Part shown: positions 687-20,270 of the stretch, piece after piece | How positions within the stretch are numbered: position 1 is the stretch's first letter | Layout: each line of letters opens with the position of its first letter | Assembly (NCBI GenBank): GCA_964512075.1 | Contig: CAZEID010000013.1 | Location: 1-45,616 of the forward strand | Direction: 5' to 3' | Length of the DNA: 45,616 nt | Origin: an uncultured Candidatus Saccharibacteria bacterium | GTDB taxonomy: Bacteria; Patescibacteriota; WWE3; 9FT-COMBO-53-11 | The notes under the pieces: generated by a model | Database searches by the model: none | Seen by the model: only the letters and a program-made list of their open reading frames with translations | Told to the model about the DNA's origin: nothing | Position numbers and translations under genes: made by a program

Positions 687-1511
687 GTGGCAGTGACGGA
701 AACGGTTATAAGGCCAAAGCGGGGTTTGGCGCTAAATCTCAAAGAAATTTGGGATTGCCGCGAGCTGTTTTACTTTTTGGCTTGGCGGGACATTAAAGTT
801 CGCTACAAACAGACCATCTTCGGAGTCGCTTGGGCGATCCTTCAGCCGTTCATCTTAATGGTGGTTTTTTCCCTTTTCTTCGGGGGAGTAGTGGGGATCT
901 CGGCCGATGGGGTTCCTTACCCCATCTTTTCCTACGCCGGGCTTTTGTTCTGGCAGTTTTTCTCGGGGGCAGTGAGTAAAGTGAGCGGGAGTTTTGTCAG
1001 CAACTCCGGAATTGTGCAGAAGATTTATTTCCCCCGCTTAATCCTTCCTCTCTCCGCGACAGTGGTTTCTCTGGTGGATTTTGTCATGGCGGCGATGGTT
1101 TTTGCGGGACTTTTGGTCTACTACCAATTTGCTCCAACTCCCCTGGGGGTTCTTTTGGTTGTTCCGGCAATTTTAATCACCTTTTTAGCCGCGACCGGGC
1201 TTGGGACTTTTTTAGCAACCCTCAACGTTAAATATCGGGACGTGGGGCACGCTCTGCCATTTTTTATTCAGCTCTTGCTTTTCTTGACGCCGGTGATTTA
1301 CCCGGTTTCGCTGGTGCCGGAGCGATTTCGCTGGCTGATCCAGCTTAACCCGATGGCGGGGGTGATTGATGCGATCCGGGCGAGTTTCTTGGGTCTAGGG
1401 GAGGTGAATTGGGAATCTTTGGGTCTGGCCGCTTTGATTAGCATCGCGCTTTTCGTCTTCGGTTACTTGTATCTGAAGCGGTTTGAGAGCGAGTTTGCCG
1501 ATATAATTTAG
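687..1511 (+). CDS. wzm: ABC-2 type polysaccharide exporter permease (Wzm/TagG-like)
   Basis: 274 aa with about 6 hydrophobic helices and ABC-2 permease sequence character. It is paired with a Wzt-like ATPase downstream. Confidence 0.85.
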   Translation: MAVTETVIRPKRGLALNLKEIWDCRELFYFLAWRDIKVRYKQTIFGVAWAILQPFILMVVFSLFFGGVVGISADGVPYPIFSYAGLLFWQFFSGAVSKVSGSFVSNSGIVQKIYFPRLILPLSATVVSLVDFVMAAMVFAGLLVYYQFAPTPLGVLLVVPAILITFLAATGLGTFLATLNVKYRDVGHALPFFIQLLLFLTPVIYPVSLVPERFRWLIQLNPMAGVIDAIRASFLGLGEVNWESLGLAALISIALFVFGYLYLKRFESEFADII

Positions 1512-1556
1512 GGGAAAAATTCTAATCACTAAACCATAAATTCTAAACAAGCATTA

Positions 1557-1922
1557 ATGGTACAAACTACAAATAACAAACAATACGATTTAGAAGACCG
1601 AACGTTAAAGTTTGCGAGATCGGTTAGGGATTTTGTGAATAAATTGCCAAAAACTGCAGCGAATTTTGAATATGGTAAGCGGCTTCTTAGGTCGAGTGGA
1701 TCTATCGGGGCAAATTACATTGAGGCGAACGAGTCGTTAAGCAAGAAAGATTTTGCGATGAGAGTGAAAATCTGTAAGAAAGAAGCCAAAGAGAGCCGAT
1801 ACTGGTTAAACTTGGTTGATCCGGGAAATGGAGAAGAGTTGGAGAAGGAACAAAACAGTTTGTTTGGCGAAGCGACAGAATCAATGAAAATTTTTGGGAG
1901 CATTTTGGAGGGTTCAAAATAA
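1557..1922 (+). CDS. Four-helix-bundle protein (23S rRNA intervening-sequence protein / Avd-like family)
   Basis: 121 aa with the family pattern RSSGSIGANYIEANESLSKKDF...KICKKEAKESRYWL. Confidence 0.85.
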   Translation: MVQTTNNKQYDLEDRTLKFARSVRDFVNKLPKTAANFEYGKRLLRSSGSIGANYIEANESLSKKDFAMRVKICKKEAKESRYWLNLVDPGNGEELEKEQNSLFGEATESMKIFGSILEGSK

Positions 1923-1973
1923 TGTTTGAAGAATTGGAATTTGGGTTTTGTTTAGAATTTCGAGTTTCGAATT

Positions 1974-1979
1974 TAGAAT
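1974..1979 (+). promoter_or_regulatory. TAGAAT -10 box contributed by the repeat, 10 nt upstream of the wzt ATG
   Basis: atttagaatttg is followed by aagactg and ATG 1990. Confidence 0.35.
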
Positions 1980-1989
1980 TTGAAGACTG

Positions 1990-3231
1990 ATGCTTAAGCC
2001 CGTCATCGAAGTTAAAAATCTATCCAAGGTCTACAAAATTTCGCACGCGCGGAAGCCTTACCATACCCTCCGAGAGGATTTGGTTGAGGCAGCTAAGACA
2101 CCGCTCCGTTTTTTGCGCGGGCACCGGACTGAAAAGGAAGAATTCTGGGCGCTTAAAGATGTCAGCTTCGATGTTAAGCAAGGGGAGGTTCTAGGGATTA
2201 TCGGTAAGAACGGGGCCGGCAAGTCTACTTTACTTAAGATCCTTTCGCGCATCACCAATCCCACTAGTGGAAGTGCCGTCCTCCGGGGGCGAGTCGCTTC
2301 GCTCTTGGAAGTAGGAACAGGTTTCCATCCGGAACTAACCGGGCGGGAGAATATTTATTTGAACGGGGCGCTTTTAGGGATGAGCCGACAGGAGATTACG
2401 CGCAAATTCGACGAGATTGTCGCTTTTGCCGAAGTCGAGAAGTTTTTGGACACTCCGGTTAAGTTTTATTCCTCGGGAATGTATGTCCGGCTGGCGTTCG
2501 CCGTGGCGGCGCATCTGGAGCCGGAGATTTTGATTGTGGATGAGGTTTTAGCGGTGGGGGATGCGCAGTTTCAGAAGAAGTCGTTGGAAAAAATGAGCGA
2601 GATTGCAAGGAGCGGCCGCACAATTCTTTTTGTTAGCCACAACTTGGGTGCTATTCGCCAACTCTGTGGGCGCGCGGTTCTTATGGACGCGGGGAGGGGG
2701 GTAGTGTTCAAAAGCTCAGCGGAAGCTGTAGCGAAGTATCAAACTTTGGGGGTAACTACCTCTCCGAAGGGGAAATACATTTCAGTCGGGGAAAAGGGGC
2801 TCCTCTTTACTGATCTCCATCTTAACGGGGTGGAATTAGCTCGCGAACCGACGGTTCTGTCGGGGGATCCCCTTAAATTCTCATTTCACTACCGTTCCGA
2901 TAAAATAAATCAAGATATCCTGATCGGTTTGAGCATTAAAAGTGCTAGGGATGGCTCTAAATTAATTTTTACTCACAATCAACTCGAATCTGCGAAGCAC
3001 TTAACCGGAGAAAAGGGAAACATCTTTGCTACTTTGTACGTTCCGAAACTCGCGCCGGGTTTGTACAACGTTGAACTTACTGTTTTGGTTGATTCAAATT
3101 ATTACATTCAAGATCTCCCAATTGGATCTTTCCGGGTTGCAGGCGTTCCTTCGTTTCGTTCTAAGCAAACGTTCGATTCCTTTCCTTCCTCCCTCTTAGT
3201 TGATTCAGACTGGAGTTTCGAGGCCGGATGA
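1990..3231 (+). CDS. wzt: Polysaccharide ABC exporter ATP-binding protein with a C-terminal glycan-binding-type extension (Wzt-like)
   Basis: Walker A GKNGAGKST, signature YSSGM and Walker B ILIVDE are present. A beta-rich C-terminal domain of about 160 aa resembles the Wzt C-terminal module. Confidence 0.9.
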   Translation: MLKPVIEVKNLSKVYKISHARKPYHTLREDLVEAAKTPLRFLRGHRTEKEEFWALKDVSFDVKQGEVLGIIGKNGAGKSTLLKILSRITNPTSGSAVLRGRVASLLEVGTGFHPELTGRENIYLNGALLGMSRQEITRKFDEIVAFAEVEKFLDTPVKFYSSGMYVRLAFAVAAHLEPEILIVDEVLAVGDAQFQKKSLEKMSEIARSGRTILFVSHNLGAIRQLCGRAVLMDAGRGVVFKSSAEAVAKYQTLGVTTSPKGKYISVGEKGLLFTDLHLNGVELAREPTVLSGDPLKFSFHYRSDKINQDILIGLSIKSARDGSKLIFTHNQLESAKHLTGEKGNIFATLYVPKLAPGLYNVELTVLVDSNYYIQDLPIGSFRVAGVPSFRSKQTFDSFPSSLLVDSDWSFEAG

Positions 3232-6113
3232 AGATACTGTTAAGTTACAGTCGTTATTTTTTTGATCCAGCCAAAGAGCCAAAGGAGCATAAACATTGGG
3301 GATATTCAGCAAGCATTCTGGCGCGAACCCTTTATCGTCTCCTCTCCGAGATTGGTGATGTCACTTATGTTGATGGTGATAACTTTCAGAGTGTCTCGGG
3401 GCGGGAGTTCGACCTCTTTGTTGGGATCGCGAGCCATTTTTCAGATATCCTCGATGTCTGCAAAGTAAAGAAAAGCATTTTTTGGGCGGTGAATATGCAT
3501 CCTTACGAGAGAAACCGTTTGATTATCGATTTTTATAAGCGGCTTAATCTCCCAAAGGAAGCTCTCGTTGGGTCGGACTTGGTTGATGCTAAAGGAATTT
3601 CTGCTTCGTTGCAGAGAGCAGATTATATCCTCGGTGTTGGAAATGTCGAGACGTACAATTCTTACATCAGGCAAGGTATTCCCAAAAATAAAATTAAGAT
3701 TTTAAACTACGGCGTGGGGAAATTGCCTAAGACAGCCGTCGGTGGATCGATTCCTCCAACTCGCCGCTTTCTCTACGCCTCTTCTGATATCGGTCTTAGG
3801 AAGGGTTTTGATTTAGTTTACGATCTTTTCGTGCGAGCTCAAGAAAGGGGGATTAATTTTCGGTTGGATGTGGTGGGTAATCCTATGAACCCTTTTTACG
3901 AGAGAAAAATAAAAGCCCTTGAAGGTGCGCTAGATGGCAAGATGGTTTACCATGGTTGGGTCAATTCTGCTTCGTCTGCTTACCAGGAGGTTTTCTCTCA
4001 CGCCACCTACCTTGTGTTTCCTTCTCTTGAGGAGGGCCAGGCGGGAACGGTTTTAGACGCTCTCCGGTATGGCGTAATTCCTCTCATTAGCTCCCGGGCT
4101 GGAATTGATTTTTCACCGTTAGGGTTCCTGGAGAGTGAGGTCGATTCGCCGAAAAATCTTGAGATTATCCAACAGGCGGCAAACCTTCCGGATTCTTCTG
4201 TGCGAAATCTTCAGGCGAAGACGCGAAAATATTACAGCGAGTTTCACGAAAGTTTCGAAACCCCGTTGCGAGAAGCACTTTGGGGATGTGTGCGAGATGA
4301 GCTCTATCCCAAGGTGAGTGTGATTATGCCGATTTTTAATAAGGAAAAAACCATTCTTTCCAATCTCCGTTTGCTGGATTCCGCTTGCCGGAGCTACGGT
4401 AACGTTGAAGTGCACATCATCTTTGATGGCTGCACTGATAAGACAGAGAAGATTACCCGGAGTTTTTATCACAGTAGAAATAAGGAAAAATATCCCGTCA
4501 CTTTTGAGGTTACTCCGAACATATTCGAGGTAAAGACTAATAATATTGGATTAAAGAAAGCAACCGGGAAGTACTGTATGATCATTCAGGACGATACTTA
4601 TATTTATGACCGGAATGCTCTTTGGGAATCTGTAATCTTTCTCGAGAGAGATCCTACTTGCGCCATTTTGGGTGGTTTGGCGGGGGTGAACTTTTATCCC
4701 ATCGGTACTCATCTTGCGGGAGAGGGGCAGATTGTGATGAGTGATAACGAAGTCTACTGGCGGCAGGACGGGCGAACCGACCCCTCCCTGAAGAATAAAA
4801 TTTTTGAAGTAGATGCTTGCATGCGGGGGCCCCTCTTCGTTAGAAAAGACTTTTTGGAAGAGCACGGTTACCTGGATGAGGTCTACGCCCCGTTATATCA
4901 GGACGATATGGACTTGTGCTTTCGGGCACGTAAGTTTGGAAAGAAAGTGTACGCGATTCTTCTGGACGTAGAGAATACTTCATTGACTATGAAAAGTTAT
5001 GACTCCCAAAAATCAGCGCGCTTTAGCGAGATTGTTAAGAGAAATACCAAAATTTTTTACGAAAGATGGTCACCATCGACAGTTAAGGACTATCTCTGGG
5101 TTCACAGGACGCCCCTGTTCTCGGGTTGCCGCTATGTTGACTTTGGCTCGATTAGAGCTAAAGTGCATCACGCTTGGTTACGCGCCACTGGTCTATCTCT
5201 CTTTGCTGGTTGGAAGAAGTCTTCGCTGGTGCGATTTCTTGAGTCCGTAGTTGGACGAGTAAAGTCGAAAGCTAGAGAGATTTATTACCGGAAAAGTTTG
5301 CCTCACGAAGTGCATTACGCAGTGAGTACCACAAAGAAAAAAATGTTGCTTAGGAAAGCGCTTAAAGAATCAATCAATTTATTTTTGGGAGTATTTGGCT
5401 TAGAAATCAGGCGGAAACCAGACGTTGAAAAAAGGTTGCCTCCTCCGGCGGTTGCGGAGTCTCAAAAAGAGAAGTGGTTGCGTAAACTAGATATCGGTAC
5501 GGTTATTGATGTTGGGGCGAACGAAGGCCAATTTGCGGCTGAAATCTCGCGCATTATCCCCGGAGTAAGGGTAATCTCATTCGAGCCGTTGGTGGATTGT
5601 TACAAAAAGCTTCTAGAGAACGGAGGTCGGTTTCCAGACTTTAGCGCTTACAATGTCGCTCTCGGGGACCGTAAAGGAAAGGTGAAAATTTATCGTAGTG
5701 AGTTTTCTCCCTCTTCCTCCTTACTTCCCATGGGGGAAACCCACAGGCGAGTGTGGCCCTTTACGGCCAAAACTACACTTGAGGAAGTTAAGATGGCTCG
5801 TCTTGACGACATCATTAAAGATAACGATATCAAGGGCCGACTGTTAATAAAAATTGATGTTCAGGGCGTTGAAGATAAGGTGATAATGGGCGGTAGAAGG
5901 ACCTTCTCCAAAGCTTGTGCGGTGATTATTGAGGTTAGTTTCAAAGAACATCTCTACAAAGGACAGGCTAGTTTTGACCAGGTTTATAAGCTTCTCCGCA
6001 AGTTTGGATTTTCCTACCGGGGGAATTGGTGGCAAGGCGAAGACCCCGACGACGGTGCTCCTCTGCAAGCGAATGCCATTTTTATTAAGGACAGGGAAGT
6101 CGAGTCATGGTGA
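3228..6113 (+). CDS. Tri-domain enzyme: GT4-type glycosyltransferase, GT2-type glycosyltransferase, long linker, FkbM-family methyltransferase
   Basis: The N-terminal GT-B region has SLEEGQAGTVLDALRYGVIPL. The middle GT-A region has VSVIMPIFNKE...IFDGCTDKT...IIQDDTY...QDDMDLCFR. The C-terminal region has VIDVGANEGQFA...NVALGDRKGKVKIY (FkbM pattern). The start overlaps the wzt stop as ATGA. Confidence 0.8.
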   Translation: MKILLSYSRYFFDPAKEPKEHKHWGYSASILARTLYRLLSEIGDVTYVDGDNFQSVSGREFDLFVGIASHFSDILDVCKVKKSIFWAVNMHPYERNRLIIDFYKRLNLPKEALVGSDLVDAKGISASLQRADYILGVGNVETYNSYIRQGIPKNKIKILNYGVGKLPKTAVGGSIPPTRRFLYASSDIGLRKGFDLVYDLFVRAQERGINFRLDVVGNPMNPFYERKIKALEGALDGKMVYHGWVNSASSAYQEVFSHATYLVFPSLEEGQAGTVLDALRYGVIPLISSRAGIDFSPLGFLESEVDSPKNLEIIQQAANLPDSSVRNLQAKTRKYYSEFHESFETPLREALWGCVRDELYPKVSVIMPIFNKEKTILSNLRLLDSACRSYGNVEVHIIFDGCTDKTEKITRSFYHSRNKEKYPVTFEVTPNIFEVKTNNIGLKKATGKYCMIIQDDTYIYDRNALWESVIFLERDPTCAILGGLAGVNFYPIGTHLAGEGQIVMSDNEVYWRQDGRTDPSLKNKIFEVDACMRGPLFVRKDFLEEHGYLDEVYAPLYQDDMDLCFRARKFGKKVYAILLDVENTSLTMKSYDSQKSARFSEIVKRNTKIFYERWSPSTVKDYLWVHRTPLFSGCRYVDFGSIRAKVHHAWLRATGLSLFAGWKKSSLVRFLESVVGRVKSKAREIYYRKSLPHEVHYAVSTTKKKMLLRKALKESINLFLGVFGLEIRRKPDVEKRLPPPAVAESQKEKWLRKLDIGTVIDVGANEGQFAAEISRIIPGVRVISFEPLVDCYKKLLENGGRFPDFSAYNVALGDRKGKVKIYRSEFSPSSSLLPMGETHRRVWPFTAKTTLEEVKMARLDDIIKDNDIKGRLLIKIDVQGVEDKVIMGGRRTFSKACAVIIEVSFKEHLYKGQASFDQVYKLLRKFGFSYRGNWWQGEDPDDGAPLQANAIFIKDREVESW

Positions 6114-7033
6114 AGCAAGAAGGCGGTGAAGTTGAGCCATTGGTTTCTGTGATCACTCCTGCTTATAACGCCGCGAAGTATTTGTCGCAGACGATCCAAA
6201 GCGCCTTGGGCCAGACCTACAAAAATATTGAGATTGTTGTAGTTGATGATGGTTCGACGGATGGAACGGAGGATCTAAAAGTTCTCCAAGATCGGCGCGT
6301 GCGCTACCTCAAAATTAAGCACTCCGGCGGTCCGGCGACTCCCCGAAACGTAGGGATCAAGAAGTCTAGGGGGGATTTAATCGCTTTTTTGGACTCCGAC
6401 GATGTTTGGCGGCCGGAAAAACTGGAAAAGCAGATTTCTTTTATGCAGAAAGGCGGATTTGATTTTGTTTCCAGCGACGCTGGCGTTATCGATAAAAACG
6501 GAAAGAAAACCAAAGATAGTTATTTAGCTCACTTGGGAAATCTGAATAATTTGGGCCCTCAGGTATTCCCGCGGCTTTACGAGAGCAACTTTGTGATTAC
6601 CTCTTCCGCGCTCGTCCGCCGGGAGGTTTTTGACAAAGTGGGTTTTTTTGACCAAAGTCCCCGGATGGTGGGAGTAGAGGATTATGATCTGTGGCTGCGT
6701 ATATCGGCCGTCGGCGCCAAATTCGGGTTTCTCCCCGAACGGCTGCTTCTTTATCGCGATCGCGCCGGGAGTTTGAGCGACCGGACGCAGAGTTTCAACT
6801 ACGAGCGGGAGCTAAGAGTTGTGGCAAAAAACTTGAAAATGGCCCGAAAGTTTTTGGGAGCAAAAAGCAAGCTGCGTCCGTTTAATTTGAGCCTTACGAT
6901 TGTCTCTGCCAGCAAAGGGAAAAGCTTAATAATGTATTGGAAGTATAAGGCTCTCTGTTTTTGGTATTTTCCGTTCGGAACGGGGAGTTCAAGAGAACTT
7001 TTTTCTCTGGCGAAGCATATTATTAAGTTATGA
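6107..7033 (+). CDS. GT2-family glycosyltransferase
   Basis: VSVITPAYNAAKYL, VVVDDGSTDGT and AFLDSDDVW are present. The gene overlaps the upstream stop by 7 nt. Confidence 0.85.
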   Translation: MVKQEGGEVEPLVSVITPAYNAAKYLSQTIQSALGQTYKNIEIVVVDDGSTDGTEDLKVLQDRRVRYLKIKHSGGPATPRNVGIKKSRGDLIAFLDSDDVWRPEKLEKQISFMQKGGFDFVSSDAGVIDKNGKKTKDSYLAHLGNLNNLGPQVFPRLYESNFVITSSALVRREVFDKVGFFDQSPRMVGVEDYDLWLRISAVGAKFGFLPERLLLYRDRAGSLSDRTQSFNYERELRVVAKNLKMARKFLGAKSKLRPFNLSLTIVSASKGKSLIMYWKYKALCFWYFPFGTGSSRELFSLAKHIIKL

Positions 7034-8211
7034 AGGTATTGCACACCGTTGAATTTTACGATCCCTCCGTTGGCGGGATGCAGGAGGTGGTCAAACAGTT
7101 ATCGGAGCGGTTGGTAAAGATGGGTCACGAAGTGACCGTGGCAACCACCAAACTTTCCGACCGCAAATCTTTGGATATCAATGGCGTGAGGATTGTGGAG
7201 TTTGCAATCTCCGGCAATCTCGTCCGTGGTCTTGCGGGCGAAGTCGAGAAATATCGAAAATTTCTGACTGGATCCCAATTTGATGTGATAACCAACTTTG
7301 CCGCCCAGCAGTGGGCAACTGATCTTGCTTTAGATGTGCTGGACGAAATAAGCGCGAAGAAGGTGTTTGTCCCGACCGGATTTTCGGGATTTTACCTTCC
7401 GGAGTATAAAAGTTACTTTAAAAAGATGGAAATCTGGATCAAAAAGTACGACGTGAGCGTTTTCCTTTCCAACGATTACCGGGATATTAACTTTGCCCGC
7501 AAAGTGGGAGTACCTCGAAATAAAATGGCAATTATTCCCAACGGGGCCAGCGAAGAGGAGTTTTTGCCCCCAAGCAGAATCGATATCCGGAAGCGCTTCG
7601 GGATTCCTAAAAGCCATTTTTTGATTCTCCATGTTGGTTCCCACACAGGAGTCAAGGGACATAAGGAGGCAATTGAAATCTTCTCTCGCGCCCGAGTAAA
7701 GCACGCCGCGTTTTTGCTGATTGGAAATATTTTCGGTGGGGGATGTAGCTTGTCCTGCCCCCGCCGGGCCCTCTTCTTCAACCTTTCGCCGCGCCGGTGG
7801 AGTGATGGCAAGCGTTTGATTGTTGCGCAGCTCCCGCGCGAAGAAACGGTCGCGGCTTACCAGGCCGCGGATCTGTTCTTGTTTCCCTCCAACATTGAGT
7901 GCTCGCCGATCGTCCTTTTTGAAGCAATGGCTTCCAAGACCCCTTTCCTGACCGCCGACGTCGGCAATTCCGCCGAAATTGTAAAGTGGTCCGGGGGAGC
8001 GGGAATCGTTCTCCCGACCGATAAGGACAAGCAGGGCTTTGCCCGGGTGCAGATTCCCGGTTCGGTTAAAGTCTTGGAGGAGATTTATCGGGATCCGGTC
8101 CGGCGCAAGAAGATGGCAGCGGCGGGCTTTCGGGCTTGGAGGAGACGCTTTACTTGGGAGAAAATTGCGGGAAATTACGAGGCGCTGTATCGGAAGTTGT
8201 TAAAAAAATGA
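7030..8211 (+). CDS. GT4-family (GT-B) glycosyltransferase
   Basis: LFPSNIECSPIVLFEAMASKTPFL is an EX7E-type motif. The start forms an ATGA overlap with the upstream gene. Confidence 0.85.
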   Translation: MKVLHTVEFYDPSVGGMQEVVKQLSERLVKMGHEVTVATTKLSDRKSLDINGVRIVEFAISGNLVRGLAGEVEKYRKFLTGSQFDVITNFAAQQWATDLALDVLDEISAKKVFVPTGFSGFYLPEYKSYFKKMEIWIKKYDVSVFLSNDYRDINFARKVGVPRNKMAIIPNGASEEEFLPPSRIDIRKRFGIPKSHFLILHVGSHTGVKGHKEAIEIFSRARVKHAAFLLIGNIFGGGCSLSCPRRALFFNLSPRRWSDGKRLIVAQLPREETVAAYQAADLFLFPSNIECSPIVLFEAMASKTPFLTADVGNSAEIVKWSGGAGIVLPTDKDKQGFARVQIPGSVKVLEEIYRDPVRRKKMAAAGFRAWRRRFTWEKIAGNYEALYRKLLKK

Positions 8212-9053
8212 TCACCGTTGATGTTTTTGGGGGGTTGGGGAACCAGATGTTTCAATACGCGTTGGGGCGACACCTTTCAATCCGGAATAAGTCTCCTTTA
8301 ATCCTCCGTCCTGTCGACGTGGGGGCGTTTTCGAAGAGGCCCTACGCTTTGGGGTGTTTTAAACTCTCACCAGAAGCGAGAGTGGTGTCTGGTGCTCAGA
8401 GAACTGGGCTTAGGGAAAGGCTGCGGTCGCTTTTGGGGAGAGGGGAGGTGTTCGTTCGGGAGAAGGGATTTTCCTTTGACTCTAGGATTTTGGAACTAAA
8501 AGGAGACGTTCACTTGCACGGCTACTGGCAGAGCGAGAAATATTTCAAAGATATCCGCGAGACGATTTTGGAGGATTTTACCCCGATCCGCCCGTTGCGG
8601 GGTCGCAACCAAAAAGTTCTTGATGAGATTGGAAGCTCAAGCTCGATCAGTGTTCACGTGCGGCGGGGCGATTACGTGATTGATCCGCAGACCAATAAAT
8701 TCCATGGCATTTGCGGACCGGAGTACTACAAAAAAGCTGTCGAGATTATTGCCAAGAAAGTTAAAAGCCCGGTCTTCTATTTTTTCTCGGACGATATCGA
8801 TTGGGTCAAGAATAATCTAAGGACCAAGTTTAAGAATGTTTACGTGGACTGGAACCAAGGCGACCAGAGCTTCGTGGATATGCAGTTGATGAGCCATTGT
8901 CGGCACCACATCTTAGCTAACAGTAGCTTCAGTTGGTGGGGAGCGTGGCTAAATCGGAATCCGCATAAGATCGTGGTTGCACCCGAAAGGTGGTTTCAGG
9001 AAAGGAGCTTGGATACGCGGGACTTGATTCCGGAAGGATGGTTGAAGATATGA
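8208..9053 (+). CDS. GT11-family alpha-1,2-fucosyltransferase
   Basis: MITVDVFGGLGNQMFQYALGRHL, HVRRGDY and NSSFSWWGAWL are present. The start was chosen at the ATGA overlap (8208) rather than the track start at 8136. Confidence 0.85.
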   Translation: MITVDVFGGLGNQMFQYALGRHLSIRNKSPLILRPVDVGAFSKRPYALGCFKLSPEARVVSGAQRTGLRERLRSLLGRGEVFVREKGFSFDSRILELKGDVHLHGYWQSEKYFKDIRETILEDFTPIRPLRGRNQKVLDEIGSSSSISVHVRRGDYVIDPQTNKFHGICGPEYYKKAVEIIAKKVKSPVFYFFSDDIDWVKNNLRTKFKNVYVDWNQGDQSFVDMQLMSHCRHHILANSSFSWWGAWLNRNPHKIVVAPERWFQERSLDTRDLIPEGWLKI

Positions 9054-9060
9054 GTAATTC

Positions 9061-9212: not shown

Positions 9213-9217
9213 GGTGA

Positions 9218-11407: not shown

Positions 11408-11415
11408 AGATCCTC

Positions 11416-11421: not shown

Positions 11422-11432
11422 TAGGAGACGGG

Positions 11433-14108: not shown

Positions 14109-14123
14109 CCGGGTAACCTTTTG

Positions 14124-14147
14124 TTATAGTATACTAATATACTATAA
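14124..14147. promoter_or_regulatory. A/T-rich 10-bp inverted repeat (ttatagtata-ctaa-tatactataa); operator or weak terminator
   Basis: The perfect inverted repeat is read directly from the sequence. It lies in the 97-nt gap between two glycan genes. Confidence 0.4.
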
Positions 14148-14187
14148 ACTTTTATTGGTTTAAGCTTTCCTTTTTAATCTTCCCACT

Positions 14188-14196
14188 TGGTAGAAT
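14188..14196 (+). promoter_or_regulatory. Extended -10 (TGgTAGAAT) 9 nt upstream of ATG 14206
   Basis: tggtagaat + taatccgat + ATG. Confidence 0.4.
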
Positions 14197-14205
14197 TAAT
14201 CCGAT

Positions 14206-15345
14206 ATGCGCATTGGTATTGACGCCCGCCTTTGGGGTTCTTCTGGTCGGGGGGTAGGGCGGTACGTCCAGAATTTGGTTGAAAATCTTGAGAAGGTCGA
14301 CTCCAAGAATAAGTACTTTATTTTCCTGAGAGAAAAGGGCTTTAATACCTTTCTTCCTCACGGTGAAAACTTTCACAAGGTTTTGGCGGATGTCCCCTGG
14401 TACGGGGTGCAGGAGCAAGTAGTGATGCCAGGGATTTTTTCGGCCTCAAACCTCGATCTTTTGCATGTTCCTCACTTCAACGCCCCACTTCTGTACGGAG
14501 AAAGAATGGTCGTAACTATTCATGATTTGACAATGCTCAAGTTTGGCGGGAGAGAAACTTCTACTCTCCCCGCCCCGCTTTTTTACGCCAAGCGGCTCGG
14601 GTTGCGGGTGGTGACGGAATTGGCTGTCCGCCGCGCCGCGCGAGTGATCGTGCCGTCTAAATTTGTGAAGAAAGAGTTAGTAAGGACTTTTACGCTTCCC
14701 CCCGGGAAGATTGTTGTAACTCCCGAGGCGGGAGTTCTGGCAGGGAAGGAAAGGACTGCGGCGGAACGGGAGATTGAAGATGTGTTGGGAAAGTACCGAA
14801 TTACCAAGCCCTACTTTCTCTACGTGGGATCTTTTTATCCTCACAAGAATGTGGGGCGGTTGGTGGAGGCGGTTAAGGTTCTGAACGAGAGATTGAAAAA
14901 ATCCGCCCAACTAGTGTTGGTAGGAGGGAAAGATGCTTTCTTGGAAAGGGTTGCGCACCAGGCGCTAGAGATTGGGGCTTTGAAGTATTTGGTTTTGACT
15001 GGTTATGTGACCGATGCTGACTTGGTTGACCTTTACCGGGAAGCCGAGGCTTACGTTCAGCCCTCGCTGTCGGAGGGCTTTGGCCTAGGCTCGGTTGAAG
15101 CGATGGCGTTGGGAGTACCGGTAGTGCAGTCTGAAGCTTCCTGCCTGCCGGAGATTGCCGGCGAAGCCGCGCTGTACTTTGATCCCCAAAATCCCCGGGA
15201 TATTGCCGAAAAATTAGCCAAGGTACTAGGAAACAAGACACTGCGGCAAGGATTAGTGAAGAAGGGTTTGGCCCGAGCAAAGGACTTCTCCTGGGAAAAG
15301 ATGGCGCGAGAAACGCTGGGAGTTTACCGGAAGGCCGCAAGATGA
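14206..15345 (+). CDS. GT4-family glycosyltransferase
   Basis: VQPSLSEGFGLGSVEAMALGVPVV is present, with an N-terminal MRIGIDAR... GT-B fold. Confidence 0.85.
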   Translation: MRIGIDARLWGSSGRGVGRYVQNLVENLEKVDSKNKYFIFLREKGFNTFLPHGENFHKVLADVPWYGVQEQVVMPGIFSASNLDLLHVPHFNAPLLYGERMVVTIHDLTMLKFGGRETSTLPAPLFYAKRLGLRVVTELAVRRAARVIVPSKFVKKELVRTFTLPPGKIVVTPEAGVLAGKERTAAEREIEDVLGKYRITKPYFLYVGSFYPHKNVGRLVEAVKVLNERLKKSAQLVLVGGKDAFLERVAHQALEIGALKYLVLTGYVTDADLVDLYREAEAYVQPSLSEGFGLGSVEAMALGVPVVQSEASCLPEIAGEAALYFDPQNPRDIAEKLAKVLGNKTLRQGLVKKGLARAKDFSWEKMARETLGVYRKAAR

Positions 15346-16274
15346 GAATTCTCGTCACCGGCGGAGCGGGTTTTATCGGAAGTCACCTCGTTGATGCTTT
15401 AGTAGAGTCCGGCCACCGAGTTTCGGTCGTTGACAACCTCTCCACCGGATTGGAAGAGTACGTCAATCCTTCGGCCGCCTTCTACCGGGAGGATATCGCC
15501 GGTGATCACTTAAGGGCCGTCTTCGCAAAAGAAAAGCCAGAGGTGGTTTTTCACCTCGCCGCCCATGTCAATCTCCGAGAGTCGTTCCAGGAACCAACCG
15601 CCGGCGCTCGGAATAACATCGTGGGCAGCCTCAATCTTCTGCAGCTCATGGCCGAGTTCGGGGTTCCCAAAATCGTTTTTTCCTCGACCGGCGGAGCGAT
15701 TTACGGCGAACCCAAGCAAATCCCGACCCCGGAGACCTATTTCGCTATCCCGACTTCTCCCTACGGCATCTCCAAGCTAGCGGTCGAGTATTATCTGGAC
15801 GTTTGGCAAAGATTGCACGGAATCGAATACGTCGCTTTGCGCTATGCCAACGTTTACGGCCCGCGCCAAGGAGGAAAGGGCGAAGCCGGGGTGGTAGCGA
15901 TCTTTGCTAAGAAGATGCTTAAGGGCGAACCGGTTGAGATCTTTGGGGATGGGAAGCAAACCCGCGATTACGTTTACGTCGCAGATGTGGTCGCTGCCAA
16001 CCTAGCCGCGCTGGAATACCGGGGGAGCGGGATCTTCAATATCGCCACCGGGTTGGAGACGAGCGTGAGGGGTATCTTTGAAAAACTCTCCAAGCTTCTT
16101 AACTATTCCGCCGCTCCCGCTTTCGCGCCGGCGGTTAAGGGAGAGATCTTACGGAGCGCCCTCGACATCTCGAAAGCCAAGAGGGAGCTGGGCTGGCAGC
16201 CCAAGGTTTCCCTCGAAGAAGGGTTGAGTCGGACCGCGGAGTTTTTCCGGAAAGCAAATGGCAGAGCTTCCTAA
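15342..16274 (+). CDS. NAD-dependent nucleotide-sugar 4-epimerase (GalE-like extended SDR)
   Basis: ILVTGGAGFIGSHL Rossmann motif and SPYGISK (YxxxK catalytic motif). The start forms an ATGA overlap with the upstream gene. Confidence 0.8.
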   Translation: MRILVTGGAGFIGSHLVDALVESGHRVSVVDNLSTGLEEYVNPSAAFYREDIAGDHLRAVFAKEKPEVVFHLAAHVNLRESFQEPTAGARNNIVGSLNLLQLMAEFGVPKIVFSSTGGAIYGEPKQIPTPETYFAIPTSPYGISKLAVEYYLDVWQRLHGIEYVALRYANVYGPRQGGKGEAGVVAIFAKKMLKGEPVEIFGDGKQTRDYVYVADVVAANLAALEYRGSGIFNIATGLETSVRGIFEKLSKLLNYSAAPAFAPAVKGEILRSALDISKAKRELGWQPKVSLEEGLSRTAEFFRKANGRAS

Positions 16275-17493
16275 AGAATTGAGAGATCTCAAAGTGGCGG
16301 TCGGGCACGATGACTTGACGGTTCCTTATGCGGGAGGGGAGAAGATTTTCATGGCCATCGCCGAAACTTTCCCCCAGGCGGATATTTTTACCAGTATGAT
16401 AACGCCCGGGTGGGCGAATAAAATCAGTGACCTCGATAAAGCCAGTAATTACAGTAAGAACCCCTCTCTTCGCTCGGGAACCTTCCTTTCTCATGAAAGC
16501 GAAAAGGACAAGCGCAAAATCATAACGACGTTTATGCAGAGGATTCCGTTCAAGCGGAAGCTTCAGAAAGTGCTTTTCTGCCTCTACCCGCTGGCGTTTG
16601 AATCGCTCGATCTTTCCGATTATGATCTGGTGATCTCCTCCTCCTCCCGGTTTGCGCACGGGGTAATTACCAAACCGGAGACTAAACATGTCTGTTACAT
16701 GCACAGCCCCGGAAGAATGTTTTGGGAGAGCGGGAGTTATTTTGCGGATAGTCCTAATTTGGAAAGAATTCTGGCCCCGGCGCTTTCGTACCTCCGGCTT
16801 TGGGATTACACCGCCGCTCAGCGCGTCGACTTTTTTATCGCCAATTCCAAAAATATTGCCCGAAAGATAAAAAGATACTACGGCCGGGAAGCGGTGGTCG
16901 TCTACCCGTTTGTTGACCTGGAGCGGTTTGAGCCGTCAGCAACCTTCGAGGTTAAGGAAAAAAACTCTGGAGGTTTGACTTCCAGTGGTGGCTATTTCTT
17001 GGTAGTTACTCGCTTGGCGCCGTGGAAGCGGGTCGAGATTGCGATAGAGGCGGCCAAGCAAGCCGAAGTGAGTCTGAAGGTAGTTGGCCGAGGTCCGGAA
17101 TTTAAGCGCCTGCGAACGCTGGCCAAGGGGAGTCCCAAGATTGAAATTTTAGGCGGAGTGGAGGACGAGGAGTTGGTGAAGCTCTACCAAAACTGCACCG
17201 CGCTAGTGATGACGCAGGAAGAGGACTTCGGAATCACCTCTTTAGAAGCCCAAGCCTGTGGAAGGCCCGTGATTGCCTACGGTGCCGGGGGAGCGTTGGA
17301 GACGGTGCTGAGCGGGAAAACTGGTCAGTTTTTTGCCGCTCAAACGGCCGATTCTCTCGCCGCCGCCCTAAAGGGGTTCAACCCCTCTAACTATAATCCT
17401 AGAGATTGTCGGAAGAACGCGGAAAGGTTCAGCAAGAAACGGTTTCAGCGAGAGTTGCTTGAGGTGGTGGAGGAGATGGTTAGCATAAAATAA
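16258..17493 (+). CDS. GT4-family glycosyltransferase
   Basis: MTQEEDFGITSLEAQACGRPVIA is present. The N-terminal half carries a low-complexity insertion (SDLDKASNYSKNPSLRSG...). The exact start is uncertain. Confidence 0.8.
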   Translation: MAELPKELRDLKVAVGHDDLTVPYAGGEKIFMAIAETFPQADIFTSMITPGWANKISDLDKASNYSKNPSLRSGTFLSHESEKDKRKIITTFMQRIPFKRKLQKVLFCLYPLAFESLDLSDYDLVISSSSRFAHGVITKPETKHVCYMHSPGRMFWESGSYFADSPNLERILAPALSYLRLWDYTAAQRVDFFIANSKNIARKIKRYYGREAVVVYPFVDLERFEPSATFEVKEKNSGGLTSSGGYFLVVTRLAPWKRVEIAIEAAKQAEVSLKVVGRGPEFKRLRTLAKGSPKIEILGGVEDEELVKLYQNCTALVMTQEEDFGITSLEAQACGRPVIAYGAGGALETVLSGKTGQFFAAQTADSLAAALKGFNPSNYNPRDCRKNAERFSKKRFQRELLEVVEEMVSIK

Positions 17494-17499
17494 GGTAGG

Positions 17500-18186
17500 G
17501 TGACGGATATGCCTAAGTTGCCCCGCGACATTTTTTACTTTTCCGCGAAGCGTTTAATTGACGTTTTGGGAGGAGCTTTCGGGCTCCTATTTTTTAGCCC
17601 GATGATGCTGGCGATTTGGGTGGCACGAAAGGCCGAGGGGGCTAAGAATGTGATTTTTGCCCAGCCCCGGGTGGGGCAACACGGGAAGGTCTTCCGCTTC
17701 TACAAATTTTCTTCCATGACGACTACTACCGCCGAAGAGGAGCGGGAATTTTTCATTCAGCTGGAGAAGAACGACCCCCGTTTGTTGGAGGCGTACCGGC
17801 GCAACAATTTCAAATTTGAGGAAGGGAAAGATCCCCGAATTACCAAAGTTGGTCGAATTATTCGCCGCTTCAGCATTGACGAGCTTCCCCAGTTTTTTAA
17901 CGTTCTCAAGGGAGAGATGTCTTTGGTTGGCCCTCGGGCTTATAAGCCGGATGAGCTGGAGTACAAGCTGAAAGAGTATCCCCAAAGTAAGAAGGATGTG
18001 GAAATGCTTTTAAAGGTTAAGCCGGGAATCACCGGGGTTTGGCAGGTTTCCGGCCGCGCGGAGATTGACTTTCCTCAGCGGGCAAAGCTGGACGCCGATT
18101 ACGCCCGCCGCCGCTCTCTTTGGGAGGATTTCAAAATTATTTTGAGGACTCCCGTCGCCATGATCGTCGGGAAAGGAGCTTATTAA
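17500..18186 (+). CDS. Polyprenyl-phosphate glycosyl-1-phosphate transferase (small monotopic 'bacterial sugar transferase', PglC/WbaP C-terminal type)
   Basis: An N-terminal re-entrant helix is followed by DELPQFFNVLKGEMSLVGPRA and KPGITGVWQVSGR. The start is GTG 17500 or ATG 17509. Confidence 0.85.
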   Translation: MTDMPKLPRDIFYFSAKRLIDVLGGAFGLLFFSPMMLAIWVARKAEGAKNVIFAQPRVGQHGKVFRFYKFSSMTTTTAEEEREFFIQLEKNDPRLLEAYRRNNFKFEEGKDPRITKVGRIIRRFSIDELPQFFNVLKGEMSLVGPRAYKPDELEYKLKEYPQSKKDVEMLLKVKPGITGVWQVSGRAEIDFPQRAKLDADYARRRSLWEDFKIILRTPVAMIVGKGAY

Positions 18187-18235
18187 CGGTTCGCGGCGGA
18201 TGACGGTAAGCAGCCTCGGGGTGTCTGATTCCATT

Positions 18236-18244
18236 TGTTAATGT
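18236..18244 (+). promoter_or_regulatory. Extended -10 (TGtTAATGT) 7 nt upstream of ATG 18252
   Basis: tgttaatgt + tggatag + ATG. Confidence 0.35.
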
Positions 18245-18251
18245 TGGATAG

Positions 18252-20270
18252 ATGGAGCTTTTGAAAGATCTTCGGTTGCCGCCGCTCTCTCCTCACATCC
18301 CTTCCGCCCCGGGAAAGAAAAGAAGGAAGAAAGCGAAGAGAGGGCGCCCGAAAATTAAGCTGGTTCTCCTATCGATGTTCCTCTTTCTGTTGCTCCTCTT
18401 CCTGCTGTTGGGGGTCCTTCCTTTGGCTTTGCTCTACCCTTCGGCGAGAAGTCTAAATTCGGCGGTCGGGGTTCTGAAGGGCGCAATTGGTGACCGCGAT
18501 TTGGCGGCGATCGGATCGGCCGTGGTGGCGGCGGCCGAGGATTTCGACCAGCTGGAAGGGAATTATCGCCGGTTGGCATACTTCCGACTCGTTCCGGTGG
18601 TCCGCCACTATTACGAGGACGGAGTCCATCTTCTTGCCGCCGGCCGGTTGTTGTTGGATTCCATCGGGATGGTGGGGGAGGCGATTAGACCCTACGAGGA
18701 AATTTTGGGATGGAAAGTTGGTTTTGGGCAGCAGATCACGGTAGAACAGCAGTTGGGAAATTTGGTTGACACTCTTCCGAATTTGGCAGATGGGCTCGAT
18801 GCCGTTTGGAAAAATATCGGTCAGATTCAGAACGAGCTTGATCAGGTTAACCCCCAAAGGTACCCGGAGGAGGTGCGGGGGGTAAAGGTGCGGTTTTGGT
18901 TGGAGGAAGCCCGCAATATTCTAGCGGAGACCGCGCCCCTTGTCTCCCGGGGGCGGGAAGTATTGGAAGTGGCCCCCGCGCTGCTTGGTTCACCGAAACG
19001 AACCTATCTGGTTCTTTTCCAGAATGGGGCGGAATTGCGGGCGACCGGGGGGTTTATTACGGGTTTTTCCCTTTTGACGGTCGAGGGGGGGCGGGTTTTG
19101 GACAATCAATTTCACAGCGGGGCTTATTTTGCGGAGCACTACTCGCCGGAGTTGGGTTCCCCACCCCGGCCGCTGGGAAAGTACTTAGGCGTTGGAAAGT
19201 GGCACTTCCAAGACGCTAATTACTGGCCCGATTTTCCGACCACAGCGGAGGGAATCCTAGCGGTGTGGCGGAAGTCCGGCTTACCGAAGGTCGCGGGGGT
19301 GGTGGCAATTAACACCGAGATTGCGGCCGATCTGTTGGATTTGACGGGGCCGATTCGCATCCGCGGCTACGATCTGGATTTGGCGAATATTAATCTTCCG
19401 GAAGACTGCCGCAAAGGCGGGCGGGATTTTACAGCTGAAAACTTGATCTGTCGGCTAGAGTACTACGTCGAGAAAGCCCCCCGGGGCGGGAAAGGGACCG
19501 AGGCCCGCAAGGCGATCTTGGGCTTGATCTCGGATGCGATTATCAAAAAGGTTTCCCACTCTTCGGCCGAAATCTGGCCGAAGCTAGTTGATTTTGTTTT
19601 CAAGCACTTGGCGGAAAAGAATCTCCTCGTTTACGCGGCGACTCCCAGAGAGCAAGATCTTCTCCGAAGCCTTGGATACACTGGGGAGCTGAAGGAGTAC
19701 GCCGGTGATTATCTCCACATTAGCGACAGCAACTTCGGCGGGTTGAAAACCAACCTTTATCTGCAGATGGAGGTGAGGCAATCGTTAGAGAGAGGAAAGG
19801 AGGGAATTTGGCGGAAAACCGTCCGAATCAAGTACTACAACCCGGCGCCATACGATGGTTGGCTCTCGGGGTATTACAAGGATTTTGTCCGAATTTATGT
19901 TCCTTTAGGTTCTCGGTTGGTTTCAGTTGACGGGGCTCTCCAAATTTGGACGCGTAAAGATTCTTGGGCGGTGACAGTTCAAAACCCCGCTGGTTGGGAA
20001 GAGAACGGCAAGACGGTTTTTGGAGCTTACTTCACCGTCGCTCCTCAAAGAGAGCAGGTGCTGACATTTGTTTATGATCTTCCCGCGGGAGTAGTAAGCG
20101 AGGACGAGGACGACGCCTCTGGCGTTCTAGCTTCCCGCGGGAAGTATCGGCTTCTTCTCCAGAAGCAGCCGGGGACAAATATAGGTCTTGTGGTGGTTAA
20201 GATTGGTGATACGATGGAATCGTTCGGACTAGGGACGGATCGCGAAGTAGTAATTTCGCTCCGCGAATAA
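18252..20270 (+). CDS. DUF4012-domain membrane-anchored protein
   Basis: A basic N-terminus and one TM helix are followed by the hallmark YLVLFQNGAELRATGGFITGF. Confidence 0.75.
   Translation: MELLKDLRLPPLSPHIPSAPGKKRRKKAKRGRPKIKLVLLSMFLFLLLLFLLLGVLPLALLYPSARSLNSAVGVLKGAIGDRDLAAIGSAVVAAAEDFDQLEGNYRRLAYFRLVPVVRHYYEDGVHLLAAGRLLLDSIGMVGEAIRPYEEILGWKVGFGQQITVEQQLGNLVDTLPNLADGLDAVWKNIGQIQNELDQVNPQRYPEEVRGVKVRFWLEEARNILAETAPLVSRGREVLEVAPALLGSPKRTYLVLFQNGAELRATGGFITGFSLLTVEGGRVLDNQFHSGAYFAEHYSPELGSPPRPLGKYLGVGKWHFQDANYWPDFPTTAEGILAVWRKSGLPKVAGVVAINTEIAADLLDLTGPIRIRGYDLDLANINLPEDCRKGGRDFTAENLICRLEYYVEKAPRGGKGTEARKAILGLISDAIIKKVSHSSAEIWPKLVDFVFKHLAEKNLLVYAATPREQDLLRSLGYTGELKEYAGDYLHISDSNFGGLKTNLYLQMEVRQSLERGKEGIWRKTVRIKYYNPAPYDGWLSGYYKDFVRIYVPLGSRLVSVDGALQIWTRKDSWAVTVQNPAGWEENGKTVFGAYFTVAPQREQVLTFVYDLPAGVVSEDEDDASGVLASRGKYRLLLQKQPGTNIGLVVVKIGDTMESFGLGTDREVVISLRE

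Follow-up and report, generated by a model that had tools for sequence, protein, structure and literature searches.

We analysed a 45.6-kb stretch of DNA (45,616 nucleotides (nt) of contig CAZEID010000013.1, assembly GCA_964512075.1; hereafter the window) whose first 20,270 nt carry a surface-glycan locus. The locus consists of a conserved core (11433-20270) and a swappable cassette of export and elongation genes, and is not one fixed assembly line. As a whole, positions 1-20270 probably encode an undecaprenyl phosphate (Und-P)-based line for a fucose-containing surface glycopolymer, with two predicted transferases acting outside the membrane. One is the Wzy_C-family half of a fusion protein that also carries a GT4 glycosyltransferase (GT) domain, and the other is a DUF4012 protein that may be a distant relative of the LCP ligases.

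Components of the locus

An earlier note, made from the letters of this DNA, had read positions 687-20270 as one complete assembly line made up of Wzm, Wzt, GTs, an FkbM methyltransferase, a Wzy_C-like domain, a GalE-like epimerase, a phosphoglycosyl transferase (PGT) and a DUF4012 protein, all on one strand. Pfam and NCBIfam scans found every one of these on the + strand at the positions listed below, with E-values far beyond chance. Its estimate of about ten GT domains was right (ten in total), but the scans distribute them over eight genes, not seven. The start at 687 did not hold, as a truncated fcl gene at 11-646 (E 7e-68), cut by the window start, extends the locus upstream; the order fcl-wzm-wzt is seen again in metagenome contigs L022, L071 and L056. 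Strong family matches for every gene, together with the conserved synteny, led us to reject chance open reading frames (ORFs). The conserved core comprises:

11433-12962, + strand: Wzy_C-family (O-antigen-ligase-like) domain with 12 transmembrane (TM) helices, the N-terminal ~510 amino acids (aa) of an 891-aa fusion (Pfam Wzy_C, family alignment, AlphaFold2 (AF2) model)
12963-14108, + strand: cytoplasmic GT4 domain fused to the Wzy_C domain (Glycos_transf_1 E 4e-37)
14206-15345, + strand: GT4 (GT4b), the most conserved gene of the core (Glycos_transf_1 E 1e-31; 59-84% identical in L001-L010)
15342-16274, + strand: GalE-like NAD-dependent sugar epimerase (Epimerase E 2e-61; TIGR01179 galE 209 bits, below the cut-off of 262)
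16258-17493, + strand: GT4 (GT4c) (Glycos_transf_1 E 2e-27; 58-64% identical in L001, L004 and L005)
17500-18186, + strand: small monotopic PGT, PglC-type, 228 aa (Bac_transf E 2e-59, EPS_sugtrans E 3e-72)
18252-20270, + strand: DUF4012 protein, 672 aa (DUF4012 (PF13196) E 3e-26, 93 bits against a gathering score of 28)

Upstream of it lie:

11-646, + strand: Fcl (GDP-L-fucose synthase), C-terminal two-thirds (NCBIfam GDPFucSynFcl E 7e-68, profile positions 99-301 of 308)
687-1511, + strand: Wzm, ABC-2 permease (Pfam ABC2_membrane E 2e-22; top NCBIfam match a galactan-export Wzm/RfbD permease)
1990-3231, + strand: Wzt, ABC ATPase (aa ~48-248) with a C-terminal carbohydrate-binding-type domain (aa ~250-413, nt 2737-3228) (ABC_tran; phmmer)
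3228-6113, + strand: 961-aa three-domain enzyme, with a GT-B-type GT (aa ~120-293), a GT2 (aa 364-479, DDT motif) and an FkbM methyltransferase (aa 758-930) (Pfam, NCBIfam)
6107-7033, + strand: GT2 glycosyltransferase (GT2a) (Glycos_transf_2 E 1e-36; 52% identical to its L001/L005 counterpart)
7030-8211, + strand: GT4 glycosyltransferase (GT4a) (Glycos_transf_1 / Glyco_transf_4; 77-78% identical in L001 and L003)
8208-9053, + strand: GT11, alpha-1,2-fucosyltransferase family (Glyco_transf_11 E 3e-39; 63-68% identical in L001 and L003)
9218-11407, + strand: GT2 + GT4 two-domain enzyme, 729 aa (Glycos_transf_2 E 7e-40, aa 21-180; Glycos_transf_1 E 1e-13, aa 541-698)

A fixed core and an exchangeable cassette

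Ten related loci were compared with the window gene by gene. Wherever they reach, the order Wzy_C-GT4, GT4b, GalE, GT4c, PGT, DUF4012, RecO, GlyRS, MraZ is kept, the exceptions being L003, which has an extra GT4 and no GT4c position, and L008 (WWE3), which has only the fusion gene in a different context. The genes upstream of the core differ from locus to locus. L001, L003 and L005 have GT4a, GT11 and GT2-GT4 in common with the window, and each carries an upstream methyltransferase of a class other than FkbM: two S-adenosylmethionine methyltransferases with separate GTs in L001/L005, and a methyltransferase with a GT87 protein in L003. In L004, L006 and L009 the upstream genes comprise one for a Wzx flippase of 500 aa, along with amino-sugar genes or TagF-like and CDP-ribitol genes, and in L008 they are those for an MsbA-type ABC exporter and for sulfation. 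The single assembly line of the earlier note thus gives way to a core joined to different cassettes.

The boundary between the two can be placed more closely. The RecO and GlyRS proteins of L004 are 85% identical to those of the window (63-76% in L001), yet the Wzy_C domain of L004 is only 38% identical (57% in L001). The fused GT4 domain is 48-59% identical in all relatives, irrespective of the upstream cassette. Because the identity of the Wzy_C domain varies while that of the fused GT4 domain stays constant, the cassette boundary must run through the fusion gene itself. In more distant organisms of the Candidate Phyla Radiation (CPR, or Patescibacteria), whose DUF4012 proteins are 28-30% identical to that of the window, the order GTs, PGT, DUF4012, RecO, GlyRS, MraZ is kept with no Wzy_C gene nearby. 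This makes the PGT-DUF4012 pair the old, general part of the locus and the Wzy_C-GT4 fusion a lineage-specific addition.

The gene content of two of the relatives can also be read for its product. L008, from candidate division WWE3 RBG_19FT_COMBO_53_11 (locus 726-14676), has next to its fusion gene a glucuronyl C5-epimerase, a UDP-GlcNAc 2-epimerase, a UDP-glucose dehydrogenase, a sulfotransferase and the MsbA-type ABC exporter, and also a PAPS synthase (ATP sulfurylase and APS kinase); the product suggested by these genes is a sulfated polymer of the glycosaminoglycan type, made by a CPR bacterium. In L006, from a metagenome-assembled genome (MAG) of the Parcubacteria group (114-9952), the cassette upstream of the Wzy_C-GT4 core combines a TagF-like glycerol/ribitol-phosphotransferase and an IspD-SDR fusion of the CDP-ribitol synthesis type with two FkbM methyltransferases and the Wzx flippase, and points to a teichoic-acid-like polymer.

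The Wzy_C-GT4 fusion protein

The family of the fusion protein is small, with 157 matches at E <=1e-3 and 14 at <=1e-30 among 1.84 billion representatives. It occurs both stand-alone (~450-500 aa) and fused (~810-890 aa), and the Wzy_C-GT4 fusion is rare, with four or five 50%-identity clusters among the same representatives. The public gene call for the window's protein is 736 aa long and starts ~155 codons inside the ORF. Because relatives align from residues 1-14 of the 891-aa ORF, we regard the 891-aa form as the real one.

The window's own Wzy_C match is weak and filter-sensitive: a 508-aa slice of the fusion matches Pfam Wzy_C (PF04932) at E 5.8e-5, with 23.4 bits against a gathering score of 31.7, and a 556-aa N-terminal slice gave no Pfam match. 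At the level of the family the assignment is firmer, with Wzy_C matched by 9 of 10 members (best E 1.5e-15) and precomputed PF04932 matches on record for 8 of 10 homologues. Invariant in the family are R257 (in SRGA), R379, H420 (in HSLxLD), D425, R429 and the loop 'SGEQFFSDAPM'. The AF2 model of the fusion (pLDDT 79) and the positive-inside rule together give 12 TM helices with both termini cytoplasmic, which puts the five named residues and the invariant loop at the outer face or in outer loops and the GT4 domain inside. The Wzy_C-like domain named in the earlier note thus keeps its conserved Arg and His residues.

When the whole fusion model was submitted to Foldseek the list was filled by GT4 matches, the best for the GT4 half being HepE, PglA, PimB' and BshA, with target-normalised TM-scores of 0.74-0.86. 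Searches of PDB sequences with the Wzy_C domain, as a single sequence and as a profile, gave no WaaL, PglL or Wzy match, and we found no TPR or other protein-recognition module on or beside this domain. Pfam Wzy_C covers ligases and polymerases alike. For the domain in the window a ligase, WaaL-like, seems to fit better than a polymerase, because the sole Wzy_C protein of these loci persists across Wzm/Wzt, Wzx and MsbA-type cassettes.

The DUF4012 protein and its likeness to LCP proteins

The last gene of the core had been noted as encoding DUF4012 with no explanation of what the protein might do. The profile match confirms the assignment, and an LCP-like model adds a candidate role. The AF2 model, built on 53 homologues, is confident (pLDDT 89, pTM 0.85); from its N-terminus it has a basic tail in the cytoplasm, a single TM helix (aa ~37-60), a long helical bundle outside the membrane (aa ~60-245), an alpha/beta domain (aa ~250-480) and a C-terminal beta-sandwich (aa ~486-669), the latter two also predicted to lie outside the membrane. 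E261, R263, D321 and N323 are invariant in the family and K420 nearly so. We found 287 homologues, mostly in CPR; the family is reported to be enriched in CPR and Gram-positives (PMC6744442). DUF4012 always stands beside the PGT: in the core-sharing loci that reach that far, in more distant CPR and in Bifidobacterium, where the two adjoin in the eps cluster of B. longum 105-A (PMC5412050).

The top Foldseek matches of the model in the PDB are LCP proteins, namely Lin1025 (3owq) and Cps2A (3tep, 3tel, 2xxq), at a probability of 1.00 over ~240 columns; the Cps2A structures among them have octaprenyl pyrophosphate bound. LCPs act on glycans carried on undecaprenyl pyrophosphate (Und-PP), and in streptococcal cps loci they share a conserved block with the PGT. 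The N-terminal anchor and outside orientation of the DUF4012 protein match the LCP topology. An LCP profile was built from four LCP sequences recovered from the PDB search output and compared with the DUF4012 profile by hhalign. The whole protein gave P 0.002, and the alpha/beta domain a score of 31.2 (P 6e-4, probability 29%, 170 columns), against 11.6 for the reversed LCP profile, at most 18.2 for 30 block shuffles and 10-14 for three unrelated alignments. The stretch aligned with confidence pairs LCP 'PvDyyv.vnmegf..lvDavGGi.v ... R..RQ' with DUF4012 'vdGViAiDT....lL...GPi.v ... RK.ilg'.

Several observations count against this likeness. The Foldseek matches have E-values of 3e-3 to 9e-3 and target-normalised TM-scores of 0.36-0.44, and the hhalign probabilities are only 13-29%. 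The LCP Pfam model (PF03816) is matched by none of the 53 DUF4012 members, even at E <=10, and a search of PDB sequences with the DUF4012 profile returned coiled-coil noise only, with no LCP chain. In the window's protein, moreover, the Arg of the 'RDxN' motif is replaced by Gln. A separate look for canonical LCPs in the window and in 13 CPR loci gave none, but ~250 kb of DNA is too short for that to say much either way. Taken together, the fold comparison and the profile comparison are weak but concordant evidence for LCP likeness. We rate a relationship of the alpha/beta domain to LCP as slightly more likely than not, and LCP-like activity of the protein as less likely than that. As the model resembles LCP ligases, which join glycopolymers to peptidoglycan, peptidoglycan becomes a serious candidate acceptor by way of the DUF4012 protein.

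The exporter, the cassette enzymes and the priming enzyme

Wzt matches the Aquifex aeolicus Wzt structures 8dku/7k2t at phmmer E 2e-67, in an alignment that reaches chain residue 348 and so spans the ATPase into the carbohydrate-binding domain (CBD) of the full-length protein; it also matches TagH/TarH and RfbE. A beta-rich C-terminal extension had been noted, and its assignment needed more than the window's own sequence. On its own the extension matches Pfam Wzt_C at E 2.4e-5 (24.8 bits, below the gathering score of 30.4), and within the whole protein at E 1.5e-4; a homologue search with the isolated C-domain gave no matches. A profile was made from the window and the 14 Wzt proteins of the metagenome contig scan that could be aligned over their full length (45-47% identity overall, 21-28% in the C-domain). 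This profile matches the A. aeolicus CBD crystal structures 8dky/6o14 at E 2.5e-16 and the Raoultella terrigena CBD 5hno at E 7e-4, and Wzt_C is matched by all 15 members of the set. The extension is, by these profile matches, a Wzt_C-like carbohydrate-binding domain, in agreement with what had been proposed for it. No Wzx flippase is found within 1-20270.

The gene after wzt encodes the 961-aa protein, in which the motifs 'IIQDDTY' and 'VIDVGANEGQF' can be seen in the sequence. The FkbM assignment made in the earlier note is upheld by TIGR01444 (E 1.5e-29, residues 761-930). The protein is a candidate chain-extending and terminating enzyme; the metagenome contig scan gave no close relative of it. 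GT4a, GT11 and GT2-GT4 join the ABC genes to the core, and all along this stretch neighbouring genes overlap or are a short distance apart. The GT2-GT4 fusion is also present in L001 and L003 at 61-63% identity. For GT11 the mechanical ORF begins at 8136, and the L001/L003 relatives align from its residue 25.

The PGT of the core shows the re-entrant helix 'LLFFSPMMLAIW', with the Ser-Pro of 'FFSPMM', and the Asp-Glu dyad in its 'DELPQ' motif, and it matches EPS_sugtrans over the C-terminal catalytic part only. From these features the product of 17500-18186 is classed as a PglC-type monotopic PGT, the predicted priming enzyme on Und-P.

Genomic setting

Every convincing gene from base 11 to 27824 is carried on the + strand. 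Downstream, the glycan locus adjoins recO, glyS and the dcw cell-division cluster on their upstream side, in the order RecO, GlyRS, MraZ, MraW, FtsI, MurA, MraY, FtsW, MurG, FtsQ, FtsA and FtsZ, followed by housekeeping genes. The named relatives of the fusion protein and of the DUF4012 protein are all from CPR/Patescibacteria (WWE3, Saccharibacteria or Saccharibacteria-labelled MAGs, Parcubacteria, Sungbacteria, Gottesmanbacteria, Levybacteria). The outer membrane has been reported missing in CPR (PMC6744442). Library scans of the window proteins found no lpx, lpt, waa or bam gene within the 45.6 kb, in accordance with the earlier statement that the neighbouring genes give no sign of lipopolysaccharide (LPS) biogenesis. 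The best explanation is that the window comes from an ultra-small, monoderm CPR bacterium, one that has no outer membrane. Neither the 45.6 kb nor the related loci contain an S-layer or pilin gene.

Two copies of a repeat element and a hairpin lie between the genes of the cassette:

629-655, + strand: terminator-like hairpin of 11 pairs with a T-run, between fcl and wzm (consensus scan only)
1517-1981, + strand: inverted-repeat-flanked cassette with a four-helix-bundle / 23S_rRNA_IVP gene (1557-1922), between wzm and wzt (Pfam 23S_rRNA_IVP E 1e-12, TIGR02436 E 7e-18)
9058-9227, + strand: ORF-less copy of the inverted-repeat element, in the gap between GT11 and GT2-GT4 (repeats D1, D2, I1, I9; 9-mer positions)

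Terminator-like sites are not enriched over the window as compared with shuffled sequences. The 9-mer AAATTCTAA occurs in 7 copies in the 45.6 kb, confined to three intergenic spots. Pairs of AAATTCTAA with a spacing of 21 nt form the 34-nt inverted repeats (1517-1550 and 1948-1981) around the 23S_rRNA_IVP gene, and the ORF-less element has the same repeats around a 111-nt spacer and folds into a long hairpin (z = -3.8). The right-hand repeat of both copies extends into the start codon of the next gene (wzt and GT2-GT4, respectively). The elements look like a cassette of the intervening-sequence type or of the miniature inverted-repeat transposable element type, in one full and one empty copy. 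L004 likewise has a 23S_rRNA_IVP gene (12161-12532, - strand) within its glycan locus, directly after the Wzy_C-GT4 gene, and small genes of this family seem to recur at the junctions of such loci. The G+C content at third codon positions (GC3) is 0.43-0.53 across 1557-7033, which covers the 23S_rRNA_IVP gene (0.43), wzt, the 961-aa GT-GT-FkbM gene (0.48) and the next GT2, as against ~0.60 elsewhere; wzm is normal at 0.61. The low GC3 of this segment is consistent with its lateral acquisition.

Some further features of the window may be recorded here. The dcw cluster (24610-30476) is unusual in having MurA between ftsI and mraY, and murE, murF, murD and murC are not in it. On the minus strand of this region lie an ECF-type (extracytoplasmic function) sigma factor (27821-28465) and a 273-aa ORF (28476-29297) with a faint MurF-like match only. 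In the Gottesmanbacteria-like contig L011 a 512-aa PilM_2 + LytR_C protein (11170-12708) stands between glyS and mraZ, a position held in the window by a TrpR-like gene. The region 36073-39112 encodes a TSCPD-domain ribonucleotide reductase and, after it, the corrinoid adenosyltransferase CobA/BtuR, which activates the cofactor that a B12-dependent reductase needs. The sole tRNA, tRNA-Val with anticodon CAC (43589-43663), is overlapped from the opposite strand by the mechanical ORF of a signal peptidase (42882-43619), whose true start is probably further in. A MOP-family (Polysacc_synt) flippase gene occupies 43833-45134.

Proposed pathway and alternative explanations

From the domain identities, topology, conservation, synteny and modularity described above we infer the following sequence of enzymatic steps. 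The small PGT would prime Und-P with a first sugar that, to judge from the GalE-like epimerase encoded nearby, may be Gal or GalNAc. A conserved adaptor would then be added by GT4c and GT4b together with the GT4 half of the fusion protein. With GDP-fucose provided by Fcl for the cassette GTs, the chain would be lengthened in the cytoplasm by GT2-GT4, GT11, GT4a and GT2a, together with the two GT domains (GT-B and GT2) that the 961-aa protein carries. The fused FkbM domain may O-methylate the chain, most likely at its non-reducing end; a mark at the chain end is favoured over an internal one because the Wzt CBD is present, as in Escherichia coli O8/O9a and Geobacillus stearothermophilus. The C-terminal domain of Wzt would recognise the finished chain, and Wzm/Wzt would export it still on Und-PP. 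Outside the membrane, the Wzy_C domain and the DUF4012 protein may compete for, or share, the Und-PP-glycan. The Wzy_C domain would move the glycan, without phosphate, to a non-LPS acceptor, for which a membrane glycolipid, as with TacL, seems to us a little more likely than a surface protein, as with WsaB/PglL; DUF4012, as a very divergent LCP-type phosphotransferase, would link the glycan to peptidoglycan. The O8/O9a and S-layer type of logic put forward in the earlier note came through every check applied to it, with the methyl cap, the acceptor and the enzymatic steps as predictions. A non-LPS acceptor, a surface protein or a lipid, likewise suits the CPR context, but peptidoglycan had been missed.

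Several points weigh against this pathway. The pairing of the core with Wzm/Wzt is seen once only and could be of recent origin, as Wzm/Wzt was found in none of the core-carrying relatives within an upstream flank of 5.5-10 kb. FkbM enzymes also methylate internal sugars, and the domain could equally do so here in place of capping. The window's own Wzt_C and Wzy_C scores fall under the Pfam gathering scores. The Wzx-type relatives have no polymerase candidate besides the fusion, and how similar the Wzy_C domains are depends on the cassette (53-57% identity as against 38-41%), as expected of Wzy. The locus is, in addition, cut at the window start.

Some of these points lead to a different explanation, in which the locus makes two separate glycans, as Lactococcus does with its rhamnan plus PSP: the core would be a Wzx/Wzy-type pathway with Wzy_C as repeat-unit polymerase and a flippase encoded elsewhere, for instance the MOP-family gene at 43833-45134, and Wzm/Wzt with the GT-GT-FkbM protein would make a second, independent polymer or a decoration. 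L004, L006 and L009, which carry Wzx and no other Wzy candidate, speak for it, as do the covariation of the Wzy_C domain with cassette type, the inclusion of polymerases in Pfam Wzy_C, the presence of a Polysacc_synt flippase in the window and the deviant GC3 of the ABC cassette. We nevertheless consider it unlikely. The locus has one priming enzyme only, and an ABC-dependent polymer needs one too; the distal flippase lies 24 kb off, beyond the dcw cluster, and has 26% identity over 241 residues to the Wzx of the relatives; the Wzy_C domain is kept beside an export route that makes a polymerase redundant; and GT4a, GT11 and GT2-GT4 link the ABC genes to the core with short gaps or overlaps. 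A purely protein-directed pathway, with Wzy_C as an O-oligosaccharyltransferase (WsaB, PglL, PilO-like) acting on an S-layer protein or pilin and DUF4012 as a non-catalytic scaffold or chain-length factor, draws on the close parallel in gene content with the G. stearothermophilus slg cluster (PMC2943079), on the type IV pili encoded by CPR genomes (PMC6744442) and on the long extracellular helical bundle of DUF4012, which could be a scaffold. It appears quite improbable to us, given that the searched DNA holds no S-layer or pilin gene and the Wzy_C domain no TPR or protein-recognition module on or beside it, that throughout CPR the locus keeps its place beside the peptidoglycan and division cluster, and that DUF4012 resembles LCP ligases in fold and profile, which argues for catalysis. 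As for an ordinary diderm O-antigen locus, with a WaaL homologue ligating to lipid A-core, the inventory of Wzm, CBD-bearing Wzt, methyltransferase and Wzy_C protein is that of an O8/O9a-type system. We rejected it on taxonomy and context and leave it next to no chance: the named fusion and DUF4012 relatives are all CPR/Patescibacteria, lpx, lpt, waa and bam are absent from the 45.6 kb, and the wider locus is CPR-typical, including its DUF4012, a family enriched in CPR and Gram-positives (PMC6744442).

Beyond the single-glycopolymer pathway that we prefer, one may speculate that DUF4012 is an unrecognised, divergent LCP branch, the ancestral partner of the PGT in CPR, Bifidobacterium and other Gram-positives, and that the fusion is a two-faced enzyme. 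According to this speculation, the GT4 half of the fusion, in the cytoplasm, would make the conserved adaptor or else a glycolipid that serves as anchor, and the half facing outward would ligate the polymer from a Wzm/Wzt, Wzx or MsbA-type cassette, so that wall- and membrane-linked forms of the glycan would arise. Taken jointly these proposals are possible, though we regard them as doubtful. If they are true, CPR make a wall- and membrane-linked, strain-variable glycan analogous to wall teichoic acid and lipoteichoic acid.

CPR/Patescibacteria are a large and mostly uncultivated group that live attached to host cells, and their surface chemistry is central yet almost unknown. For a CPR surface glycan the locus supplies a concrete list of parts that can be tested. 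In its behaviour it is like an O-antigen or capsule locus, in which priming and attachment are left to a conserved block and the serotype is set by a block exchanged laterally. Should DUF4012 be an LCP-type ligase, there would be a function for one of the families noted as enriched in CPR and Gram-positives, and wall anchoring in CPR could be tested directly with a soluble ectodomain. The Wzy_C-GT4 fusion is, in addition, a natural experiment on the coupling of a ligase to cytoplasmic assembly.

Comparison with known systems

In E. coli O8/O9a the corresponding components are WbdA/B/C, the terminator WbdD, Wzm/Wzt with a CBD, and WaaL. The system predicted here would share with it cytoplasmic polymerisation on Und-PP, a chain-end modification tied to export through the Wzt CBD, and subsequent action of a Wzy_C-family ligase. 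It differs in having no lipid A-core acceptor, in a terminator candidate that is fused to GTs where E. coli has a separate coiled-coil kinase/methyltransferase, and in initiation by a PGT, as opposed to WecA. The best solved relative of the window's Wzt is that of A. aeolicus (Wzm/Wzt 6m96, 7k2t, 8dku; CBD 6o14, 8dky). A. aeolicus, unlike the source of the window, is a diderm with LPS, and the low identity of the CBDs means that ligand specificity cannot be transferred from one to the other.

The slg cluster of G. stearothermophilus NRS 2004/3a (WsaP, WsaD/C, WsaE, WsaF, Wzm/Wzt, WsaB) is similar in several respects: the organism is a monoderm, a PGT starts the glycan on polyprenyl phosphate, adaptor synthesis has its own GTs, two GT activities and a proposed capping O-methyltransferase reside in a single three-domain enzyme, and export by Wzm/Wzt is followed by final transfer by a Wzy_C-domain membrane protein (PMC2943079). 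In the window, by contrast, the methyltransferase is of the FkbM type and C-terminal, that of WsaE being N-terminal, and the predicted sugars include fucose (Fcl, GT11) where slg has rhamnose only. The window further departs from slg in its minimal PglC-type PGT, its fusion of Wzy_C to GT4, its DUF4012 protein, the lack of a neighbouring S-layer gene and its CPR origin.

For the two outside transferases the nearest parallel is the pneumococcal teichoic acid, which TacL, a Wzy_C protein, transfers to a glycolipid and LCPs transfer to peptidoglycan (PMC5727136). There too, in a monoderm, one Und-PP polymer is served by two extracellular transferases, a Wzy_C ligase and a single-pass, outward-facing phosphotransferase (PMC5727136). 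Pneumococcus has a Wzx-type flippase (TacF) and a separate polymerase, and its TacL is not fused to a GT; the proposed LCP counterpart in the window, DUF4012, shows its likeness through fold and a weak profile match alone. The core itself resembles the conserved blocks of streptococcal capsule loci (cpsA, an LCP, to cpsE, a PGT) and of the B. longum eps cluster (PGT-DUF4012-Wzz), in that a PGT is kept together with a single-pass extracellular protein, and as in Gram-positive capsule and exopolysaccharide loci a variable, serotype-like block of GTs and export genes stands alongside. In contrast to those loci, the block has no Wzz or tyrosine kinase, contains the Wzy_C-GT4 fusion as well, and borders directly on recO and the dcw cluster. 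The logic of the pathway is thus already established in other bacteria; the new points are its occurrence in CPR, the joining of Wzy_C to GT4, and a DUF4012 protein that may belong with the LCPs.

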